The translations under genes were made by a program, and so were the position numbers. This document shows, piece after piece, positions 31,724 through 60,628 of a stretch of 64,000 nt of DNA; the stretch's first letter is position 1; each line of letters opens with the position of its first letter. Under the pieces are notes generated by a model. That model did no database searches and was not told the DNA's origin. It saw only the letters and a list, made by a program, of their open reading frames with translations. Origin of the DNA: Candidatus Saccharimonadales bacterium (GTDB lineage Bacteria > Patescibacteriota > Saccharimonadia > QS-5-54-17). Location of the stretch: positions 37,330 to 101,329 of the forward strand of contig JBBDOS010000004.1 of assembly GCA_040876925.1 (NCBI GenBank), in the 5' to 3' direction.

Positions 31724-31993
31724 AACACAATTTAATTAGCGTAATAAACCCCAGTGATTTATAAAAGTATTCAAATTATTATTTAGGGATAAAATACTTT
31801 ACTCAAATTATATATTATCCATACTTAGTTTACTTGACAGTATGGTATAAAAATGTTAATGTTTTAATATCTATTCGTAAAGTGTGAGGTGGAGACCAAA
31901 GCATTTACGACCCTAGAGGTCTTTGACAAGCTACATATTTGTAAATTATATCTGTTATATTAAGATATTGTTCGCTATTTAGTATATGTAGTT

Positions 31994-32046
31994 CAAAAGC
32001 AGAACACTGTAGGCTATTTAAGGTTGTCTTTAGTGTTCTGCTTTTG
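31994..32046. other. long hairpin in the 560-bp noncoding region (15-bp perfect stems CAAAAGCAGAACACT / AGTGTTCTGCTTTTG, 23-nt loop)
   Basis: Inverted repeat seen directly. Could be a terminator for the M16 gene or a structured RNA element. Confidence 0.4.
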
Positions 32047-32151
32047 GCTTATATGCTAAGAGCAATATTTAAGTGACCGATATGTATTTTTGTATTTTTC
32101 CATAACTTTAAATGTTTCTTCTTCTATAGAGGCAAGGAGCAGCACTGTATT

Positions 32152-32172
32152 GCAAACTATTAATTAGTTTGC
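32152..32172. promoter_or_regulatory. palindrome GCAAACTA-ttaat-TAGTTTGC (8-bp arms) at the left edge of the island
   Basis: Perfect inverted repeat seen directly; candidate operator or protein-binding site. Confidence 0.35.
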
Positions 32173-32238
32173 GGTATGTTGCTGTTCCTTACCCTGTGGG
32201 GGTCCGAGGAAAGGTAGTTAGAAAGCCTAACTACCCTT

Positions 32239-32258
32239 GATGCATTAACATGCATCAC
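32239..32258. promoter_or_regulatory. palindrome TGATGCAT-taac-ATGCATCA (8-bp perfect arms) 27 nt upstream of island ORF1
   Basis: Perfect inverted repeat immediately upstream of the GGGGGAG RBS and ATG at 32285; candidate operator. Confidence 0.4.
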
Positions 32259-32284
32259 AGCAGACTCCCAGAAGGGGGAGAGAC

Positions 32285-32731
32285 ATGACTGTCGAGAACA
32301 ACACCAGGCCAATCACCAACGCCGAGATGCGTGAGCGGTTCGATCACTTCGAGCAGATTCTTGAGCGCAGGAGTCGGTGGTATCGTTTGCGTAGCTGGTT
32401 CAGTACTCGTAATGAGGGTCGAGCCAGGCTCAACAAAACCAGTCTCCGTGAGAGACTGGCAAACAGAGATTCCGTTCAGCTGAACGGCAAGCTGCTTCCA
32501 TTGGCTGTTAGCGCAGTCCTTGGTTTGCTAGCTGGTTGGATCGCTGTCCGGATCGGTCTGAGTCTTTCCGACCGAGTTGCTGAAATTGCTGGTACCAGCC
32601 TTGGCTGGCTGGCTCTTCAGCAGATCGTCATCACGATTTTGGCGATACTCATCGGTATCTACACGTTTCGATGGGTGCTGAACTACTTCAAGGAAGACCA
32701 ACTCGAGGAATCTAACAACGATTCCTCCTGA
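32285..32731 (+). CDS. hypothetical 2-TM membrane protein encoded in the GC-rich island
   Basis: 148 aa with a basic N-terminal region (RRSRWYRLRSWFSTRNEGRARL) and two hydrophobic helices. Strong RBS. Confidence 0.6.
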   Translation: MTVENNTRPITNAEMRERFDHFEQILERRSRWYRLRSWFSTRNEGRARLNKTSLRERLANRDSVQLNGKLLPLAVSAVLGLLAGWIAVRIGLSLSDRVAEIAGTSLGWLALQQIVITILAILIGIYTFRWVLNYFKEDQLEESNNDSS

Positions 32732-32753
32732 AGATCACCAAGGAGGTGACAGC

Positions 32754-33845
32754 ATGAAGCGCATATTGGCGCTAGTCGGGGTGCTGCTGCTAGTTGCAGC
32801 CATCCCGCTCGTCACCATCTTTGGTGGTGACGATGAACCCGTCATTGATCAGGCTGAATCCGAAGTGGAGTCAGAGCCTGATCCCGAATCAGAACCCGAA
32901 CCAGAACCCGAACCAGCATCCGAATCAGGGTGTCTGACGTGGGAATCGGTTGAGGGTAACCACGACAACAACAGGTGGTTTGGTGATGGCATTGCAAGCA
33001 TTCTAGAAGCACAAACGCGTGAGGATGCTCGTAATGCAGCCGATGAATTCTTGGGGCTGGTTAAGCACCATCCCAACCTACTCGTGGCAACGACTCGTTA
33101 TTTCCTTGACCGTGAGGTTGAGGCAGTTGAGTTGTTCGATCGAGACGACTGTGCTACAAATGAGGCTGAAGTTCTCGTAGCTGAACTAGAGATAGTTCTG
33201 GCCGCGAGTGATATCTCAGTTGATGAAGCACCGTCTGATGGGTACAACTCTGGTGTAGATGAGCATGGAACGGCTGGTGTATCAACTCACCCCGGAATTA
33301 CTGGTAACCGTCAGGCTATCAAGATTGTGAAGCCTGATGGTACGGTGATTTGGATTATGGGTAGGTGCGGTAACATCGTCGTTACTGAGCCTCCGCCAGA
33401 TCTACCCGAGGTTCCAACAGATGAACCGCCTCCGAAGGAGGTCAAGGACCCAAGCGAGGATGTTTTGTTGAATCCAGACGTCCCAGATAGGGTTCGAGGT
33501 CCATCTGGAGGAAGTGGGTGCGGTGATAAGCCCTGTGAGGTTGATGCTCCTGAAGCTGATCCTGACAGGACGCCGCCGTCAACCGACTCTCCTGAACCAC
33601 CACCTCCAGAACCTGGCGGCTATGAGCAGCCAGACTCTTCTGATGGTGGAGGTTCTCCTGGCGGTGGAGACGATTCAGTCGTTTCTGAGCCAGATGATGA
33701 TGCAGATGACAACCCCGAGCAGGATGACTCTAAGGAGCCATCTCCAGGTACGTCATCTGACACTTCCAACGATGCTGATTCAGACGACGCAAAGACGCCT
33801 GAGTCAGACGAAACCAATCAGTCAGGAGATCCTGGAATGCCCTAG
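32754..33845 (+). CDS. secreted/anchored acidic Pro-Glu-Ser-Asp-rich protein encoded in the GC-rich island
   Basis: N-terminal signal/anchor (MKRILALVGVLLLVAAIPLV), then an (EPEP)n linker, a globular segment with Cys residues, and a long acidic/proline low-complexity tail. No LPxTG. Confidence 0.6.
   Translation: MKRILALVGVLLLVAAIPLVTIFGGDDEPVIDQAESEVESEPDPESEPEPEPEPASESGCLTWESVEGNHDNNRWFGDGIASILEAQTREDARNAADEFLGLVKHHPNLLVATTRYFLDREVEAVELFDRDDCATNEAEVLVAELEIVLAASDISVDEAPSDGYNSGVDEHGTAGVSTHPGITGNRQAIKIVKPDGTVIWIMGRCGNIVVTEPPPDLPEVPTDEPPPKEVKDPSEDVLLNPDVPDRVRGPSGGSGCGDKPCEVDAPEADPDRTPPSTDSPEPPPPEPGGYEQPDSSDGGGSPGGGDDSVVSEPDDDADDNPEQDDSKEPSPGTSSDTSNDADSDDAKTPESDETNQSGDPGMP
32852..32927 (+). repeat. 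tandem hexanucleotide-type repeats encoding the (S/E-P-E/D)n linker
   Basis: GAGTCAGAGCCTGATCCCGAATCAGAACCCGAACCAGAACCCGAACCAGCATCCGAATCA seen directly. Confidence 0.6.
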
Positions 33846-34131
33846 CGGCTCACCAGCGGTTTCCTATGAGTAATGGAGATACATGGATCATATCGGGTCA
33901 CTGCGTGCTACTGGGGCAATCTTTTGTTTTAAAGGGCTAACACCTCTTTGATAAAAAACAAAAGACCCCCAGTAGCCGCATTACCCTAAATAGTTTTCAA
34001 ATATGTAGTTTGTTGAAGTGTAAATCCTAGAGGGAAAGAGCACATTAATAAGCCAAACCTAGAGAAGAGATACATTAAACAATTAGAAACTTTTAGTATT
34101 TTAAGTAAATTCCCTATGAAAGGAGAATGAT

Positions 34132-35439
34132 ATGAATATAAGAAATATATTAAACTATATCAGCTATGTTCCTAAGTCATTTACAGCTATAGCCGCAGCA
34201 CTTGTGGTTACTGTAATGCCTATAGCAACTATGGCTGGTTTTGGTCCGGATAGACCAACTTTTAGCATTAACGATCCAGCAGATTACGTAACTTTCAACT
34301 CTATTACCGATAATCCAAATTATGGTGATGAGAGATACTTCTTTGATGGTAAGCCTGCTAGTGACACTAGTACAGGCGGCTTCTCTGACCCTATAGAAAT
34401 AGGTGATTTAGACGATGGTGATGAGCTATTGCTACGTGTATACGTACACAACAACGCCAAAGAAAGTCTAAACGATAGCGGTGAAGGTATTGCCAAGAAC
34501 ACTCATGTTAGAGTAGATCTACCTAACAATACCGATAGATCACTACGTGCTACTGCTAGCATTTCAGCTGATAATGCTAACCCAGGTACGGTATATGACA
34601 CATTAGACTTTACTAGTGCTAATAGACCATTCAACCTAGATTACGTTGCTGATTCAGCTGTGATTCATACTAATGCTGTGCCAAGCGGTATGAATCTAAG
34701 TGATGACATCATCACTTCTAACGGAGCTAAGATAGGATACGATAAACTTAATGGTGAAGTGCCTGGATGCTTTGAATTTACAGGTATAGTAACCTTAAAG
34801 GTTAAAGTTAACAAAGCGGACGTAGAAGTCGATAAGTTTGTTCGTAAGCTAGGTGAAACTGAGTGGAAAACTGAAAATAATGCTAAGCCTGGAGACACGC
34901 TTGAGTATTTGATACGCATGAAAAACTCAGGTAGCACTACTCTTAAAGATGTCATGGTAGGCGATAATCTACCTAAGTACACTTCATATGTAGAAGGCAC
35001 CACTATGTTGAAAAACATGAACAACCCTAACGGTATTAGTATCGACAACGATAATATTACCAAGGGAGGTATCAATATAGGTCACTATGAACCTGGATCT
35101 GTAGCGTATGTATGGTTCCAGGCCAAAGTCGATCCTGTAGGAGTATTCGATAAGTGTGGAGACTATACTATCCGCAATGTTGGCGTAGTACGTCCTGAGG
35201 ATATGAATGAGTTCTTCAACACTGCAGATACCAATGTCACTATTAAGTGTGAAGTGACTCCGACAGGTGCACCTCCTGAAGATGTTCCTGAAGATGTTCC
35301 AGAAGGCGTTCCAGAAGAATTGCCACAAACTGGTATAGGTGGCATCTTCGGTGGATTGATAGGTAGTGGAGCTCTAGGTATCGGCTTAAGAAGCTGGATA
35401 GGTTCCAGAAGGAAGTTTATCGACTCTTTAATGAGTTAA
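34132..35439 (+). CDS. cell-surface protein with DUF11-like repeat domain and C-terminal LPQTG sorting signal
   Basis: N-terminal signal region. A DUF11-like segment (KPGDTLEYLIRMKNSGSTTLKDVMVGDNLPKYTSYVEGTT) lies at about 34837-35122. A PEDVPEDVPEGVPEE linker precedes LPQTG (35320-35334), followed by the hydrophobic IGGIFGGLIGSGALGIGL and a basic RSWIGSRRKF tail. Confidence 0.8.
   Translation: MNIRNILNYISYVPKSFTAIAAALVVTVMPIATMAGFGPDRPTFSINDPADYVTFNSITDNPNYGDERYFFDGKPASDTSTGGFSDPIEIGDLDDGDELLLRVYVHNNAKESLNDSGEGIAKNTHVRVDLPNNTDRSLRATASISADNANPGTVYDTLDFTSANRPFNLDYVADSAVIHTNAVPSGMNLSDDIITSNGAKIGYDKLNGEVPGCFEFTGIVTLKVKVNKADVEVDKFVRKLGETEWKTENNAKPGDTLEYLIRMKNSGSTTLKDVMVGDNLPKYTSYVEGTTMLKNMNNPNGISIDNDNITKGGINIGHYEPGSVAYVWFQAKVDPVGVFDKCGDYTIRNVGVVRPEDMNEFFNTADTNVTIKCEVTPTGAPPEDVPEDVPEGVPEELPQTGIGGIFGGLIGSGALGIGLRSWIGSRRKFIDSLMS
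35275..35316 (+). repeat. tandem 12-mer repeats (CCTGAAGATGTT x2, CCAGAAGGCGTT, CCAGAAGAA) encoding the PEDV linker
   Basis: Seen directly in the coding sequence just before the LPQTG motif. Confidence 0.55.
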
Positions 35440-35460
35440 TAGATAAAGACTTCTAAAAGA

Positions 35461-35512
35461 CCTAGATCGGCTCTAGGTAAGCACCCCTGTTTTGCAGGGG
35501 TGCTTTTAATTT
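35461..35512 (+). terminator. rho-independent terminator (tandem hairpins: CCTAGA-tcggc-TCTAGG, then AAGCACCCCTG-ttttg-CAGGGGTGCTT followed by TTTTAATTT)
   Basis: GC-rich 11-bp stem with a T-tract 22 nt after the stop of the LPQTG protein. Confidence 0.8.
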
Positions 35513-35588
35513 AACTACATCTAGTTAAATATTTAGCAAGAATAGCCCAATAACAGGGTTAGAGATGATATACATGGAATGCATATAT

Positions 35589-35617
35589 TTGACAAAAGCA
35601 TAAGTAGATAGTATAAT
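35589..35617 (+). promoter_or_regulatory. consensus sigma70 promoter (-35 TTGACA, 17-nt spacer, -10 TATAAT) for the PKD/LAQTG surface-protein gene
   Basis: TTGACA at 35589-35594 and TATAAT at 35612-35617. The leader contains a small hairpin (GGTGT-gaaggagttt-ACACC) holding an SD-like AAGGAG in its loop, then the true AAGGAGG RBS. Confidence 0.7.
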
Positions 35618-35671
35618 ATAGAACATTAACCAAGGTGTGAAGGAGTTTACACCACAAGGAGGTTTTAAGAG

Positions 35672-36742
35672 ATGTTAAAGAATCTAAGAATTAAGAACTA
35701 CATTTTAGTTATAGCTTTGTTTCTAGCTGGTATATTAGGAGTTGTTAGTATAGGTAGCTCTTTTGCAGCTAGTGATAATGATATTGTTTATGGTGGTGTT
35801 TCTAATCAAACTGATCTACGCAACAAGTTTAATAATGGCGATGGACACAACTCAGCTGCTAATATCCAAGCCATCTATCGTGAAGCTATTGGCGTAAAGA
35901 AATCTACTGAAATGAGCGGTATGAGCTGGGGCTATGTTTACCGTGACGGTAGGGTGGTAGTTGATGGTAAGACGGTAGCCACTAATGCTAAAAGCTCAGG
36001 TAGATTAAACTTCCGCAACTCTAAACCATTGGGTGATACCGGTGCTTTCTACCATGATACCGATATTCGCTTCAGTTCAGGCACTAATAAGCTACGTGCA
36101 CTAATAAAGCTCGATAGTAATGGTAAGTATAAGTTTGCTGTTATAGCTAATTGTGGTAACCCAGTTATTGCTAAACCAGTTCCAGTTCCTGAGCCAGACC
36201 CAGAACCTGAGCCAGACCCTGAACCAGAACCAGAACCAGAACCTAAGCCTGAACCTAAGCCACAACCACAAGCTAGCTTCGTGTGCGATAGCTTAAGTAT
36301 TAATAAGCAACAGGTTAATCCTGGTGATAGAGTTGTCTTTACAGCTAGTTCTAGCAGGAATAACACTAGCCTAGAGGACTACAGCTACCATTTCGGTGAC
36401 GGTGAGGTTCTAACTACTAGACGTAATATGATTTCATATAGTTACAGCGAGCCAGGTACTTACACAGCTTATGTCATAGTTAATACTGATGCCGGCAGTA
36501 CTCAGCCAACCAGTATTTGTGAAGTAACCGTGCAGGTATTAGCTGAGGAAATACCAGAAACACCAGAAGAGTCTACATCTGAGCCAAAAGCACCAGAGAA
36601 GCTAGAAGAAGCTCCTGAAGAGCTAGCGCAAACAGGTGTTGGTAGTGGTTTACTAGGTCTAATGGGTAGCGGTATTCTAGGTGCTACTGTCCAAGGCTTT
36701 AGGATGACCCGCAAAAAGTTTCTAGACACTATATTGGGCTAG
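35672..36742 (+). CDS. cell-surface protein with PKD-like domain and C-terminal LAQTG sorting signal
   Basis: Signal peptide (ends ...SSFAASDN). A PVPVPEPDPEPEPDPEPEPEPEPKPEPKPQPQ linker is followed by a PKD-like segment (YHFGDGEV...EPGTYTAYVIVNTDAGS, about 36278-36542). The tail carries PEEL-AQTG (36623-36637), the hydrophobic VGSGLLGLMGSGILGATV and the basic RMTRKKF. Confidence 0.8.
   Translation: MLKNLRIKNYILVIALFLAGILGVVSIGSSFAASDNDIVYGGVSNQTDLRNKFNNGDGHNSAANIQAIYREAIGVKKSTEMSGMSWGYVYRDGRVVVDGKTVATNAKSSGRLNFRNSKPLGDTGAFYHDTDIRFSSGTNKLRALIKLDSNGKYKFAVIANCGNPVIAKPVPVPEPDPEPEPDPEPEPEPEPKPEPKPQPQASFVCDSLSINKQQVNPGDRVVFTASSSRNNTSLEDYSYHFGDGEVLTTRRNMISYSYSEPGTYTAYVIVNTDAGSTQPTSICEVTVQVLAEEIPETPEESTSEPKAPEKLEEAPEELAQTGVGSGLLGLMGSGILGATVQGFRMTRKKFLDTILG
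36170..36270 (+). repeat. tandem hexanucleotide repeats encoding the (PE/PD/PK)n linker
   Basis: GAGCCAGACCCAGAACCTGAGCCAGACCCTGAACCAGAACCAGAACCAGAACCTAAGCCTGAACCTAAGCCACAACCACAA seen directly. The opposite strand gives the spurious (GS)n ORF 36049-36366. Confidence 0.65.
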
Positions 36743-36762
36743 TTTAACTTAGCCCAATATAG
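36729..36762 (+). terminator. hairpin overlapping the stop codon (13-bp perfect stems CTATATTGGGCTA / TAGCCCAATATAG, 8-nt loop)
   Basis: Seen directly. No clear U-tract follows, so this may be a terminator or an mRNA-stabilising hairpin. Confidence 0.5.
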
Positions 36763-36818
36763 CTAGGGGCTACCTAAATTGTAGGTATCTAATATATACT
36801 GATATCTTAAGTAGTCTT

Positions 36819-44962: not shown

Positions 44963-45235
44963 CTAAACTATCTTAACCATAGTACGTGGTACTTTTTGTC
45001 CGCTGAAACGTATTTTTCTAGTTTTGACGAAATCTACTTTACCGTCCTGAGTAGCGTAGATAGTGTGATCTCGTCCATAAGCTGTGCCTGGTCCGGCTAT
45101 TTTACTGCTGCCTCTTTGGCGCACTAAAACAGCGCCAGATTTTACTTCTTGACCAGCAAATAACTTAACCCCCAGCCGTTGACCGGGAGAATCCTTTAGA
45201 TTAGAGGCTGAACCGCCTGATTTAGTCTTACTCAT
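44963..45235 (-). CDS. rpmA: 50S ribosomal protein L27
   Basis: SKTKSGGSASNLKDSPGQRLGVKLFAGQ... matches the L27 signature (KKGGGS.RNGRDS...RLGVK). Confidence 0.9.
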   Translation of the reverse strand: MSKTKSGGSASNLKDSPGQRLGVKLFAGQEVKSGAVLVRQRGSSKIAGPGTAYGRDHTIYATQDGKVDFVKTRKIRFSGQKVPRTMVKIV

Positions 45236-45236
45236 T

Positions 45237-46385
45237 TTACCTTGTCTCCAAAAGTATTATATATCTACCGACGAACTGATTGTCTCTACGATAAAGCAAG
45301 CCAGTGTCGGAATTGTTTAACAGTAGCCGATTATAGCCAAGCTCCTCTATATTGTCAATTATGTCTGGCAATATAGTATTGTCGTTGTTTTTCCAGGCCG
45401 GTAAGGCTAGACAAGCTCGAGAGCCTTTAGGTAGTTGAGGTTGTAAGTTTTTAAGAGTGGATTTCATGAGTTCTGATGATTGACTAGCTAGTTCTAATAA
45501 CTTATTTTTATCAGTTTCCTTATTGATTATAGGGCCCAAGTAGCCTTCACTGACAATAGTGTCTACTCCTTCTGGTAGCTGCAAATTTCTAGCATCAGCT
45601 ACTTCTAAATATTTAGGTTGCGATGTATTAAATTCCTTACTTAACCAACCAAGGTTTTCTCTAGAGCAATTAACCATCTTATCTGATATATCCGAGCCCC
45701 CCACGTCTTTATTCATTAGCAGTGCTTCTTGCAAGATAACTCCGCTGCCGCAGAATGGATCAAATATAAAATTATTATCATTACCGGTGATATTGATCAT
45801 GATTTGAGCTAATTTAGGCGGCAACATGCCGGTTTGCATATCTCTACAAGGCCTGCCGATGTCTCTATGTGTGTATTTATCAATATCTTGCACCCAAGTA
45901 GTTTTAGCAACTACAGTGCTTGAGTCGCCGATACTTATTAAGAGCTCATAACCACTGCCAATTAAATTATTATGTATGACTTGAGCTGAGGATAGTTCCT
46001 GATTTTTAGCTAGTATAATCCGAGGTTTCAAGCCGTTATTTCTAAGATGTTTTTTGAAAGTTAATGATATTTGCTGATAGTTATCTATGCTTTTGCCATA
46101 GAAACTAAGTCCAATATTGAACTTAGTTGCCTTTAGGTTAAGATCCTCTGCTGCTTTTTGATATAGATAATCTGCAATTGCATTGATATCTGCAGTGTTT
46201 AAAGTGGTGATTATTTCACCAATCTTACTAGTTCCTCCTAGATGGGGGTATATAGAGCCAGTAAATACAGCACTTTGAGTAGAATGTCTGCTGGTATCAG
46301 GATAGATAGCGCCAAGCTCGGCTAGTGATAATTTAGGATTAACTCCTAATGTAGCTAGATATTTCATCAAGCTTAATACTAGCAC
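45237..46385 (-). CDS. class I SAM-dependent (putative RNA) methyltransferase, RlmL/Trm11-like
   Basis: Motif I DPFCGSG preceded by a THUMP-like N-terminal region. The position expected for NPPY reads VSEGYLG (divergent). Confidence 0.5.
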   Translation of the reverse strand: MLVLSLMKYLATLGVNPKLSLAELGAIYPDTSRHSTQSAVFTGSIYPHLGGTSKIGEIITTLNTADINAIADYLYQKAAEDLNLKATKFNIGLSFYGKSIDNYQQISLTFKKHLRNNGLKPRIILAKNQELSSAQVIHNNLIGSGYELLISIGDSSTVVAKTTWVQDIDKYTHRDIGRPCRDMQTGMLPPKLAQIMINITGNDNNFIFDPFCGSGVILQEALLMNKDVGGSDISDKMVNCSRENLGWLSKEFNTSQPKYLEVADARNLQLPEGVDTIVSEGYLGPIINKETDKNKLLELASQSSELMKSTLKNLQPQLPKGSRACLALPAWKNNDNTILPDIIDNIEELGYNRLLLNNSDTGLLYRRDNQFVGRYIILLETR

Positions 46386-59659: not shown

Positions 59660-60628
59660 ATGGCTGATGAAGTACAACTACGCGGTGGATCAGAATCAGA
59701 GAATGATGCTTTCACTGGCTTAGATCGTGAAGTTACAGTCGATACTACTAATAAGACACTTAGAATACATGATGGTACAACAGCTGGAGGGTCTAAACTA
59801 CCTGCCTATGATGAATGGGGTAGGTTACAAGTAGCTGATCCGGTAAATGATACTGATGCTGCAAGTAAAGGGTATATAGATGATAATACTGCTTCTTTCA
59901 ATACAGGTACTGAAGCAGAGCGTGACGCCGCCGACCCTAAACCTGAATACTGGTGGAATACAGATACTTCAAAGCTAGAGCGATGGAACGGTTCGACGTG
60001 GGACGTGATTGGACCCGCTGGCGGCGTAGACGTGCAGACGTTCGCCGCGTCCGGCACCTGGACCAAGCCCGAAGGTGCGACCGACGCAAGCCTGGTAGTG
60101 GTCGAGCTAGTTGCGGGCGGTGCAGGCGGCAGCACCGACGGAGGAGGCAGCTATTCAGGCGGTGACGGTGGTTCCGCTATTCACGGAACTTTTCGCGCAG
60201 GTGAACTATCGGCTACCGAAAGCGTTACCATTGGAAGCGGCGGAAACGGCGCGGTGACCGGAATAGGTGCGGCCGGTGGGGACACAACGTTTTCCAACCT
60301 GCTACGCGCCTTCGGCGGACTAGGAAACGCTAGCAACGGCGGCGGCGCTGGCGGTGCTGGAGACGGAAGCAAGGGCGGAAATAACTGGCCGAAAGTCAGC
60401 GACGGCGGCGCTGGAAGTTCTATTGGCGGCGGCGGCGGCGGCCGAAATGGCGGCGGCGCGGGCGGCACATCCTACAGCGCAGGTAACGGCGGCGCAGGCA
60501 ACAACGCCGGAAGCGGTGCAGACGACGGATCGATCCCTGGTGGCGGCGGCGGTGGCTCTGACGCAGCTGGCGGCGGTAACGGCGGCGACGGCGCACGCGG
60601 CGAGGTCCGCGTCATCACCTACCTCTAG
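59660..60628 (+). CDS. phage tail-fibre-like protein with glycine-rich C-terminal domain (compositionally chimeric ORF)
   Basis: 322-aa ORF. The N-terminal motif (VQLRGG...FTGLDREVTVDTTNKTLRIHDGTTAGGSKLP, at 59672-59795) resembles the conserved N-terminal box of phage tail fibre / hyaluronidase-like proteins. GC switches from about 40% to 65-70% near 59990. The C-terminal 210 aa are Gly/Ala/Ser/Asn/Asp-rich (GGAGGSTDGGGSYSGGDGGS...GGGGGGRNGGGAGG) and end GEVRVITYL. Confidence 0.65.
   Translation: MADEVQLRGGSESENDAFTGLDREVTVDTTNKTLRIHDGTTAGGSKLPAYDEWGRLQVADPVNDTDAASKGYIDDNTASFNTGTEAERDAADPKPEYWWNTDTSKLERWNGSTWDVIGPAGGVDVQTFAASGTWTKPEGATDASLVVVELVAGGAGGSTDGGGSYSGGDGGSAIHGTFRAGELSATESVTIGSGGNGAVTGIGAAGGDTTFSNLLRAFGGLGNASNGGGAGGAGDGSKGGNNWPKVSDGGAGSSIGGGGGGRNGGGAGGTSYSAGNGGAGNNAGSGADDGSIPGGGGGGSDAAGGGNGGDGARGEVRVITYL
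60425..60442 (+). repeat. (GGC)6 trinucleotide microsatellite within the Gly-rich coding region
   Basis: GGCGGCGGCGGCGGCGGC seen directly; further imperfect GGC/GGT runs lie at 60536-60560. Confidence 0.7.

Follow-up and report, generated by a model that had tools for sequence, protein, structure and literature searches.

A conserved Saccharibacteria cassette for predicted sortase substrates and a membrane-tethered partner protein

The way in which ultrasmall Saccharibacteria construct their surface and keep hold of host bacteria is largely an open question. A locus in Candidatus Saccharimonadales bacterium (GenBank assembly GCA_040876925.1, contig JBBDOS010000004.1) bears on it: what kind of structure would the products of its three consecutive genes form at the cell envelope? 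We analysed the 64-kb stretch of DNA containing these genes (the window) together with 80 related loci, designated by L-numbers and selected via relatives of the second gene. Three open reading frames (ORFs) reported in a preliminary description of the sequence were confirmed on the + strand and are called g1 (32754..33845, 363 aa), g2 (34132..35439, 435 aa) and g3 (35672..36742, 356 aa). The domain calls, the N-termini and the sorting signals supported the view that this is a surface-protein locus. We consider it likely that the locus is a cell-envelope protein module of a Saccharibacterium, in which g2 and g3 are anchored to the wall by a sortase and g1 is the membrane partner of g2; a role of the module in surface contact is plausible.

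The product of g2 is composed of a signal peptide (aa 1-35), an N-terminal domain (N-domain; aa 37-228), a DUF11 domain, now called CLIPPER (aa 229-373), an acidic Pro-rich spacer, the pentapeptide LPQTG, a transmembrane (TM) segment and an RRKF tail. By inspection, its N-terminus showed the n-, h- and c-regions of an apparently cleavable Sec signal, with the cut between ..PIATMA and GFGP; in alignments of 24 and 190 sequences of the family, the cleavage region was conserved as AxA followed by WGPxRPT. The DUF11 assignment, initially proposed from the letters alone, was upheld by PF01345 (28.5 bits, cut-off 24.6) and TIGR01451 (38.5 bits, cut-off 24). LPQTG is encoded at nt 35320-35334 and is followed by 18 largely hydrophobic, Gly-rich residues and then by RSWIGSRRKF... 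In 150 of the 190 family members, an LPxTG-type motif (defined as Leu, then Pro/Ala/Val/Ser, any residue, Thr/Ala, Gly/Ala) was located 26-39 residues from the C-terminus, as strict LPxTG in 132 sequences and as close variants in 18 more. Because the pentapeptide is kept at a fixed distance from the C-terminus, it appears to be in use.

A word-indexed protein search produced 354 matches to g2. At least 476 species-representative genomes contained relatives; 80 of them were listed, nearly all under Saccharibacteria titles. The family is large and essentially restricted to this group. Its usual domain order is N-domain, DUF11, often PKD, and anchor. Among the closest g2 relatives (56-60% identity), those that also match PKD have this domain in the same protein, so a PKD-plus-anchor module appears to be shuffled among proteins. 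The N-domain (~190 residues) had no Pfam, NCBIfam or PDB sequence match and contains many invariant residues, including those in FNS, GDER, YVHNNA, ADNA and PGCF. Judged from the alignments, it is unusually conserved for a host-specific adhesin. Invariant positions in this domain (window 34132-34815) include H106, N107, D66, E67, N148, D156 and C213, a set that would be more in keeping with metal binding or catalysis than with a purely structural role.

DUF11 has been renamed CLIPPER, and crystallography has established it as a CnaA-like domain with an Asp-catalysed Lys-Asn isopeptide bond (PMC12617251). The corresponding triad of g2 was almost invariant in the 190 sequences (K235, 190/190; D278, 190/190; N349, 188/190). 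In the alignment with 9IFR, a CLIPPER domain of known structure, D278 coincided with the catalytic Asp748; K235 aligned with the first-strand Lys of the Streptococcus sanguinis surface protein 9uvr/SSA1632. The g2 stalk is thus probably locked by a Lys235-Asn349 isopeptide bond with Asp278 as the catalytic residue. Three Cys residues, C213 (188/190), C342 and C373, were conserved as well. C342 and C373 are located at either end of a beta hairpin and, from the strand layout, probably form a disulfide, which would leave C213 unpaired. With CLIPPER domains such as 9IFR, g2 has in common an HMM (hidden Markov model) match over the cut-off, the equivalent Lys, Asp and Asn residues and a likely disulfide; co-occurrence with PKD_4 was reported in the CLIPPER survey (PMC12617251) and is also seen in g2 relatives. 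In contrast to the long tandem stalk described there, g2 has one copy beside the anchor, with a predicted bond. The AlphaFold2 (AF2) model of g2 showed two beta domains, with a predicted local distance difference test score (pLDDT) of 84 for the chain and >90 over residues 40-370. Foldseek searches with the model retrieved integrin leg domains, Cna, ACE, SspB, BspA and SSA1632/1633, with low whole-chain TM-scores.

The g3 product is organised in a similar way, with a signal peptide (aa 1-32), an N-domain (aa 33-168) that ends with CGNPV, a Pro/Glu spacer (aa 169-200), a PKD domain (aa 205-290), an acidic spacer, LAQTG, a TM segment and an RKKF tail. Its N-terminus, by inspection, also had n-, h- and c-regions and an apparently cleavable Sec signal, with the cut between ..SSFA and ASDN. 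The PKD fold suspected in the third gene was recovered at aa 211-287 by PKD_4 (51.4 bits, cut-off 27, E = 1.2e-13) and PKD (35.4 bits, cut-off 23.5), and this region matched PKD domains in PDB. LAQTG is encoded at nt 36623-36637 and is followed by 20 largely hydrophobic, Gly-rich residues and RMTRKKF... Both of the last two genes had been credited with LPxTG-type signals: g2 indeed has LPQTG, and the signal of g3 is sortase-type, but LAQTG is a variant, not a strict LPxTG. The acidic Pro/Glu linkers noted in all three ORFs (SEPDPESEPEPEPEP, PEDVPEDVPEGVPEE and PVPVPEPDPEPEPDPEPEPEPEPKPEPKPQPQ) were found; at the DNA level, they are 12-nt tandem repeats.

No Pfam or PDB sequence match was obtained for the g3 N-domain, and a word-indexed protein search with this domain alone was empty. 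A local HMM search with aa 33-168 identified relatives in 6 of the loci selected via g2, where the domain is fused to PKD, once also to DUF11, and is encoded beside or near the g1-g2 pair. The anchors seen with these relatives include MPVTG in L002 and a Gram_pos_anchor match in L022; the 245-aa protein of L002 shares 29% identity with g3.

What is the role of the first gene? The g1 product begins with a 20-residue hydrophobic stretch that, by inspection, has no cleavage site and therefore looks like a signal anchor (aa 1-24). It is followed by an acidic Pro/Glu spacer (aa 25-59), a conserved alpha/beta domain (~aa 60-215) that ends with an invariant RCGN motif (Cys205), and a disordered Pro/Asp/Ser-rich tail of ~150 aa. 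LPxTG was absent from g1 and from the members of its family that were examined (0/151). An N-terminal anchor was found in 131 of the 151 members, with a lipobox in 30 of those, and the tails averaged 123 residues with 20% Pro. By these features, g1 is not a wall-anchored protein or a sortase substrate but a membrane-tethered one. Cleavable-looking Sec signals in g2 and g3 and the signal anchor in g1 agree with the signal or anchor N-termini first ascribed to the three ORFs; the proposed wall-anchored set is reduced to g2 and g3.

Initially, g1 appeared to be a near-orphan, with 2 matches in the word-indexed search. This was an artefact of the word index; in an exhaustive HMMER search, the family reached 368 cluster representatives at E <= 1e-3. 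Neither a Pfam family nor a PDB sequence matched g1. The AF2 model of its domain had a pLDDT of 95.6 and a predicted TM-score (pTM) of 0.89, and its fold had no significant neighbour in PDB (best E = 0.1) or BFVD (best E = 0.075). Only four polar residues, N165, R204, C205 and N207, were conserved at >=95%. C205 was kept in 171 of 172 sequences and was the sole Cys of the domain in 37; it is an invariant extracytoplasmic cysteine that is possibly unpaired. We rejected as unsupported the idea that g1 is a cysteine protease or an enzyme resembling a sortase or an L,D-transpeptidase: conservation at >=85% was not reached in the family by any His, Asp, Glu, Ser or Lys, and a Cys/His enzyme role is unsupported because no conserved His, Asp or Glu is available. 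The top Foldseek matches were Josephin-type deubiquitinases (E = 0.1, TM = 0.19), which do not support an enzyme either. Homology between the g1 domain and the g3 N-domain was also considered. The hhalign probability was 71%, over only the last 27 columns (a hairpin ending with CGN(I/P)V), which is suggestive but unproven.

The genes of the locus are linked well beyond this genome. By HMM, a g1-like gene was directly upstream of g2 on the same strand in 22-23 of the 73 loci with enough upstream DNA, and seven further upstream proteins shared a C-terminal NTG...CxNP motif followed by a Pro-rich stretch. When sampled from the g1 side, a g2-like gene was next in 5 of 5 loci with downstream DNA (L002, L084, L085, L088 and L090), and L088 has the g1-g2-g3 trio in the same order as the window. 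Genes of the g3 type are missing from most loci and are near the g1-g2 pair in a minority. The cassette is usually positioned next to prfB-ftsE-ftsX, as in the window, or between pyk-pgk-tpi and a histidine kinase. By gene order, the g1-g2 pair is a conserved, syntenic cassette beside housekeeping genes across Saccharibacteria. The suggestion of a concentration of adhesins peculiar to this genome was not borne out.

Members of the family are already labelled in databases as DUF11-, PKD- or LPXTG-containing proteins, and our literature search found no study of this protein family in Saccharibacteria. What is new here is that the cassette is conserved and includes a membrane-tethered partner of an uncharacterised family, that two N-domains lack annotation, and that a set of conserved cysteines may be unpaired.

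How might the three proteins work together? The wall of Saccharibacteria is of the Gram-positive type. We propose that g2 and g3 would be exported through Sec, after which a sortase encoded elsewhere in the genome would cut behind the Thr of the LPQTG or LAQTG motif and join the proteins covalently to peptidoglycan. The acidic Pro-rich stretches would serve as extended spacers taking the folded domains through or past the wall. The stalk of g2, a CLIPPER immunoglobulin-like (Ig-like) domain, would be held by the Lys235-Asn349 bond and the Cys342-Cys373 disulfide, and the conserved N-terminal beta domain would be its displayed, functional end; g3 would show a different N-domain on a PKD stalk. 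The N-terminal anchor, a lipid anchor in relatives, would keep g1 in the membrane. We infer that, where membrane and wall meet, g1 acts on g2 or together with it, either helping to assemble or retain it or being displayed beside it as a subunit. The most likely role of the module would be contact with another surface, that of the host cell or the cell's own envelope polymers; host adhesion of an epibiont via this locus is plausible. The window also encodes signal peptidase I and an LCP-family protein, both of which count in favour of this proposal. For a complete TM7 genome, both sortases and sorted proteins are on record (PMC3812714), and more than half of the genomes of the Candidate Phyla Radiation were reported to have a sortase family (CPR; PMC6744442).

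Several observations weigh against sortase anchoring and a contact role for this module. No sortase was found in the window or the 80 related loci by a scan for the TLxTC motif or by phmmer with a Staphylococcus aureus SrtA query. The LPXTG anchor model TIGR01167 scored 13.4 bits on g2, under its cut-off of 15.9, and did not match g3. The strongly conserved N-domain of g2 and the housekeeping neighbours (prfB-ftsEX, pyk-pgk-tpi) would suit a core role in the envelope, or binding of a conserved ligand, no less than host-specific adhesion. In 39 of the 73 loci, the upstream same-strand gene was not recognisably g1-like. By inspection, most of those shown encode proteins that start with a membrane anchor or with a long charged stretch and have a C-terminal end rich in Pro, Thr and acidic residues; their products had no detectable similarity to g1.

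If no sortase acts at all, the hydrophobic segment and the basic tail would serve g2 and g3 just as an anchor in the cytoplasmic membrane. The missing sortase and the low TIGR01167 score would be expected in that case, as would the tails beyond the TM segment, which are longer than in classic LPXTG signals; moreover, sortase detection is patchy in CPR groups other than Microgenomates (PMC6744442). However, a plain TM anchor leaves unexplained why the pentapeptide is conserved at its fixed C-terminal distance, and the TM7 genome documents sortases with their sorted proteins in this lineage (PMC3812714). Anchoring in the membrane alone therefore appears improbable to us. A more elaborate use of the sorting signals would be a sortase-assembled pilus of the Gram-positive kind, with g2 as the shaft pilin and g3 as a minor or basal pilin, polymerised by a pilin sortase via Thr-Lys bonds and then anchored to the wall. 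Two LPxTG-type proteins side by side, the CnaA-like isopeptide-type domain of g2, and the sequence and fold similarity to SSA1632/SSA1633 and to the Clostridium perfringens pilus protein CppB would be in line with such a pilus. SSA1632 and SSA1633 (PDB 9uvr, 8wxd and 9vqn), which we take to be subunits of the S. sanguinis sortase-dependent pilus, gave the best PDB sequence matches over the first, Lys-bearing strand of the g2 CLIPPER domain, and their overall multi-Ig fold resembles g2; the identity, however, is ~12% and the TM-scores are ~0.25. K235, the only Lys invariant in the 190 g2-family members, is already engaged in the intramolecular triad, with no second conserved Lys as a pilin-motif nucleophile. 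Pilus sortases are normally clustered with their pilins, but no sortase of any class was adjacent in the window or the 80 loci, and a g3-type pilin would be lacking from most loci. With neither a conserved Lys to spare nor a sortase gene close by, we consider a pilus of this kind unlikely.

A very improbable alternative is a pilus of the CPR-specific Pam type, described in 2026 (bioRxiv 10.64898/2026.03.03.709456), which is built by donor-strand exchange; g2 and g3 would then be Pam pilins and g1 the assembly chaperone. The two systems occur in the same clade, Saccharimonadia, both comprise two-domain, Ig-like proteins that are exported by Sec, as g2 and g3 appear to be, and a membrane-anchored accessory protein is encoded alongside the Pam pilins. 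The Pam pili of Ca. Mycosynbacter amalyticus are likewise a Saccharibacteria-wide surface system for which host contact has been proposed (bioRxiv 10.64898/2026.03.03.709456). However, g2 and g3 carry LPxTG-type signals, whereas the report on Pam pili (bioRxiv 10.64898/2026.03.03.709456) makes no mention of LPXTG or isopeptide bonds, refers to sortase merely as background, and states that the pilins lack meaningful annotation. Pam chaperones are PapD/FimC-like with a C-terminal TM anchor; the anchor of g1 is N-terminal, and its fold had no PapD-like match. Of the pam neighbours (ATP synthase, CorB and MFS), none occurs in the annotated parts of the window; the window genes examined with Pfam, a set to which ~15 ORFs at 9-24 kb do not belong, include neither an ATP synthase nor a chaperone gene. 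In mechanism (donor-strand exchange without a sortase signal), operon content and neighbourhood, the Pam system, as described, differs from the cassette.

Wall-anchored surface proteins of the MSCRAMM (microbial surface components recognizing adhesive matrix molecules) and fibrillar-adhesin kind, such as Cna, ACE and the AgI/II proteins SspB and BspA, are closest in plan to the predicted wall-anchored g2 and g3. They share the Sec signal, which g2 and g3 appear to have, a distal domain on an Ig-like stalk, the Pro-rich wall-spanning spacer, and LPxTG with the hydrophobic segment and basic tail behind it, as well as the Foldseek matches. The proteins of the locus differ from them in having a single-domain stalk without tandem repeats, N-domains that match no Pfam family or PDB sequence, longer tails after the TM segment and, in g3, LAQTG as the sorting motif. 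Also in contrast to those adhesins, the locus includes a conserved upstream gene for a membrane-tethered partner of an uncharacterised family, and the family belongs to the core and keeps its synteny across a phylum-level clade instead of varying between strains.

Do the three proteins form one covalent structure? g1, g2 and, where present, the g3-type protein might be joined by intermolecular disulfides into a Saccharibacteria-specific surface complex, since Cys205 of g1, the Cys of CGNPV in g3 and Cys213 of g2 all appear to lack a partner in their own domains. We regard this as rather unlikely. If true, it would couple a membrane protein of unseen fold to a wall-anchored, isopeptide-locked protein, a new way to build an envelope-spanning contact structure in bacteria living on bacteria. 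To our knowledge, Type IV pili and Pam pili are the only surface structures of Saccharibacteria characterised so far. The cassette offers genetically tractable candidates in the cultured relatives N. lyticus, S. epibionticum and M. amalyticus, which bear on envelope organisation, host contact and maybe a new, partner-dependent display of sortase substrates. Even if its part in the wall proves to be no more than structural, it would be a useful clade marker and surface antigen.

The upstream partners that are not g1-like had a feature of their own. After long Pro/Thr-rich tails, they end in short motifs, ...GRVE, ...NPFG(N), ...PGGDFG, ...PGGF or ...NPWG (seen in L015, L016, L018, L025, L027, L031, L038, L039, L042, L046, L051 and L053). 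The similar C-termini hint at a shared C-terminal recognition element.

Transcription signals divide the locus. Upstream of g3, a sigma-70-type promoter with the consensus TTGACA-17-TATAAT is located at 35589..35617 (+), exactly where it had been pointed out. It matches the consensus at 12/12 positions, and its -10 hexamer ends 54 nt before the ATG; g3 would be transcribed from a very strong promoter. Two perfect copies of this promoter were present in the 64 kb; by chance, 0.96 matches with <=1 mismatch would be expected. The second copy, at 45330-45358 (-), falls inside a methyltransferase gene (45237-46385, -), at its 3' end, and is directed towards a 90-aa ORF (44963-45235, -) also found in related loci (cluster 38).

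Strong terminators had been assigned to both g2 and g3. The one after g2 (35479..35505, +) is a canonical intrinsic terminator with a 12-bp stem, 7 GC pairs and a U-tract (-21.5 kcal/mol, z = -4.23). The 14-bp hairpin of g3 (36729..36762, +) lies in a 66-nt stretch (36725-36790) with a folding energy of -25.8 kcal/mol (z = -3.89), in which a second, smaller hairpin is formed too. Because it has no U-tract and overlaps the stop codon, it is not a canonical intrinsic terminator, and its function as a terminator is uncertain. Downstream of g1, a long imperfect hairpin (33907..33976, +) is contained in a 145-nt stretch (33846-33990) with a folding energy of -55.3 kcal/mol (z = -6.05). It has no U-tract and is possibly the terminator of g1 and of the small gene g0 upstream of it. 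The transcription units appear to be g0-g1, g2 and g3, and the cassette is probably highly expressed.

g0 (32285..32731, +) encodes a 148-aa protein with two predicted TM helices and ends 22 nt before g1. It had no Pfam or NCBIfam match above cut-off and no relatives in the 80 loci. Small genes of similar layout, with two TM helices, are found upstream of g1-like genes in some loci; this likeness is loose and limited to a few loci, and with no sequence relatives g0 was not accepted as a conserved member of the module, its membership being uncertain. g0 and g1 occupy a GC-rich, compositionally foreign segment (GC 0.52-0.53, and 0.51-0.57 over 32180-33960, compared with ~0.39 elsewhere), the 3' edge of which is marked by the long imperfect hairpin. 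The GC content at third codon positions (GC3) was 0.60 in g0 and 0.44 in g1, in comparison with 0.30-0.39 in neighbours; at 0.31, g2 and g3 look native. This composition suggests that the resident copy gave way to one from a relative with higher GC. We favour such a replacement over an unrelated insertion, since a g1-like gene is what normally accompanies g2 in syntenic position. A 29-nt inverted repeat brackets the segment (arms 31921-31949 and 33990-34018, 83% complementary). Its score was equalled in 13 of 200 block shuffles and it may be due to chance; a mobile-cassette origin of g0-g1 was not adopted. Between the M16 peptidase gene and g0, there is an AT-rich intergenic region of 561 bp (31724-32284, GC 0.33) with a 14-bp hairpin at 32146-32178 that had no Rfam match.

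The locus is flanked upstream by greA, serS, secA, murD and the M16 peptidase gene and downstream by prfB, ftsE, ftsX and genes for a CHAP/PcsB-like hydrolase and an S41 protease, followed by pyrG; mraZ, mraW, ftsI, mraY and ftsW are located farther downstream in the window. An Rfam scan of the window gave no match, and a tRNA search of it found none. g1, g2 and g3 were all called as genes in a second assembly, GCA_040904145.1, as well, where the 435-aa g2 product is matched residue for residue on contig JBBDUB010000028.1. Near-identical copies are deposited as 'MAG: hypothetical protein WDZ32_01030/01035 [Candidatus Saccharimonadales bacterium]'. Contig JBBDUB010000028.1 stops at a position matching ~39872 of the window, which continues to 64000. 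The gene order over ~39872 (ftsX, CHAP hydrolase, S41 protease, pyrG) was identical in L009, L045 and L054; the window therefore appears to be contiguous at this point.

A gene at 59660-60628 (+), between ftsI and mraY in the division and cell-wall cluster, encodes a 322-aa protein in which an Mtd_N domain (major tropism determinant N-terminal, E = 6.5e-11) is accompanied by a glycine-rich domain. With a GC content of 0.59 and a GC3 of 0.50, it looks like an inserted gene of the phage-tail-fibre type or of the type targeted by diversity-generating retroelements.

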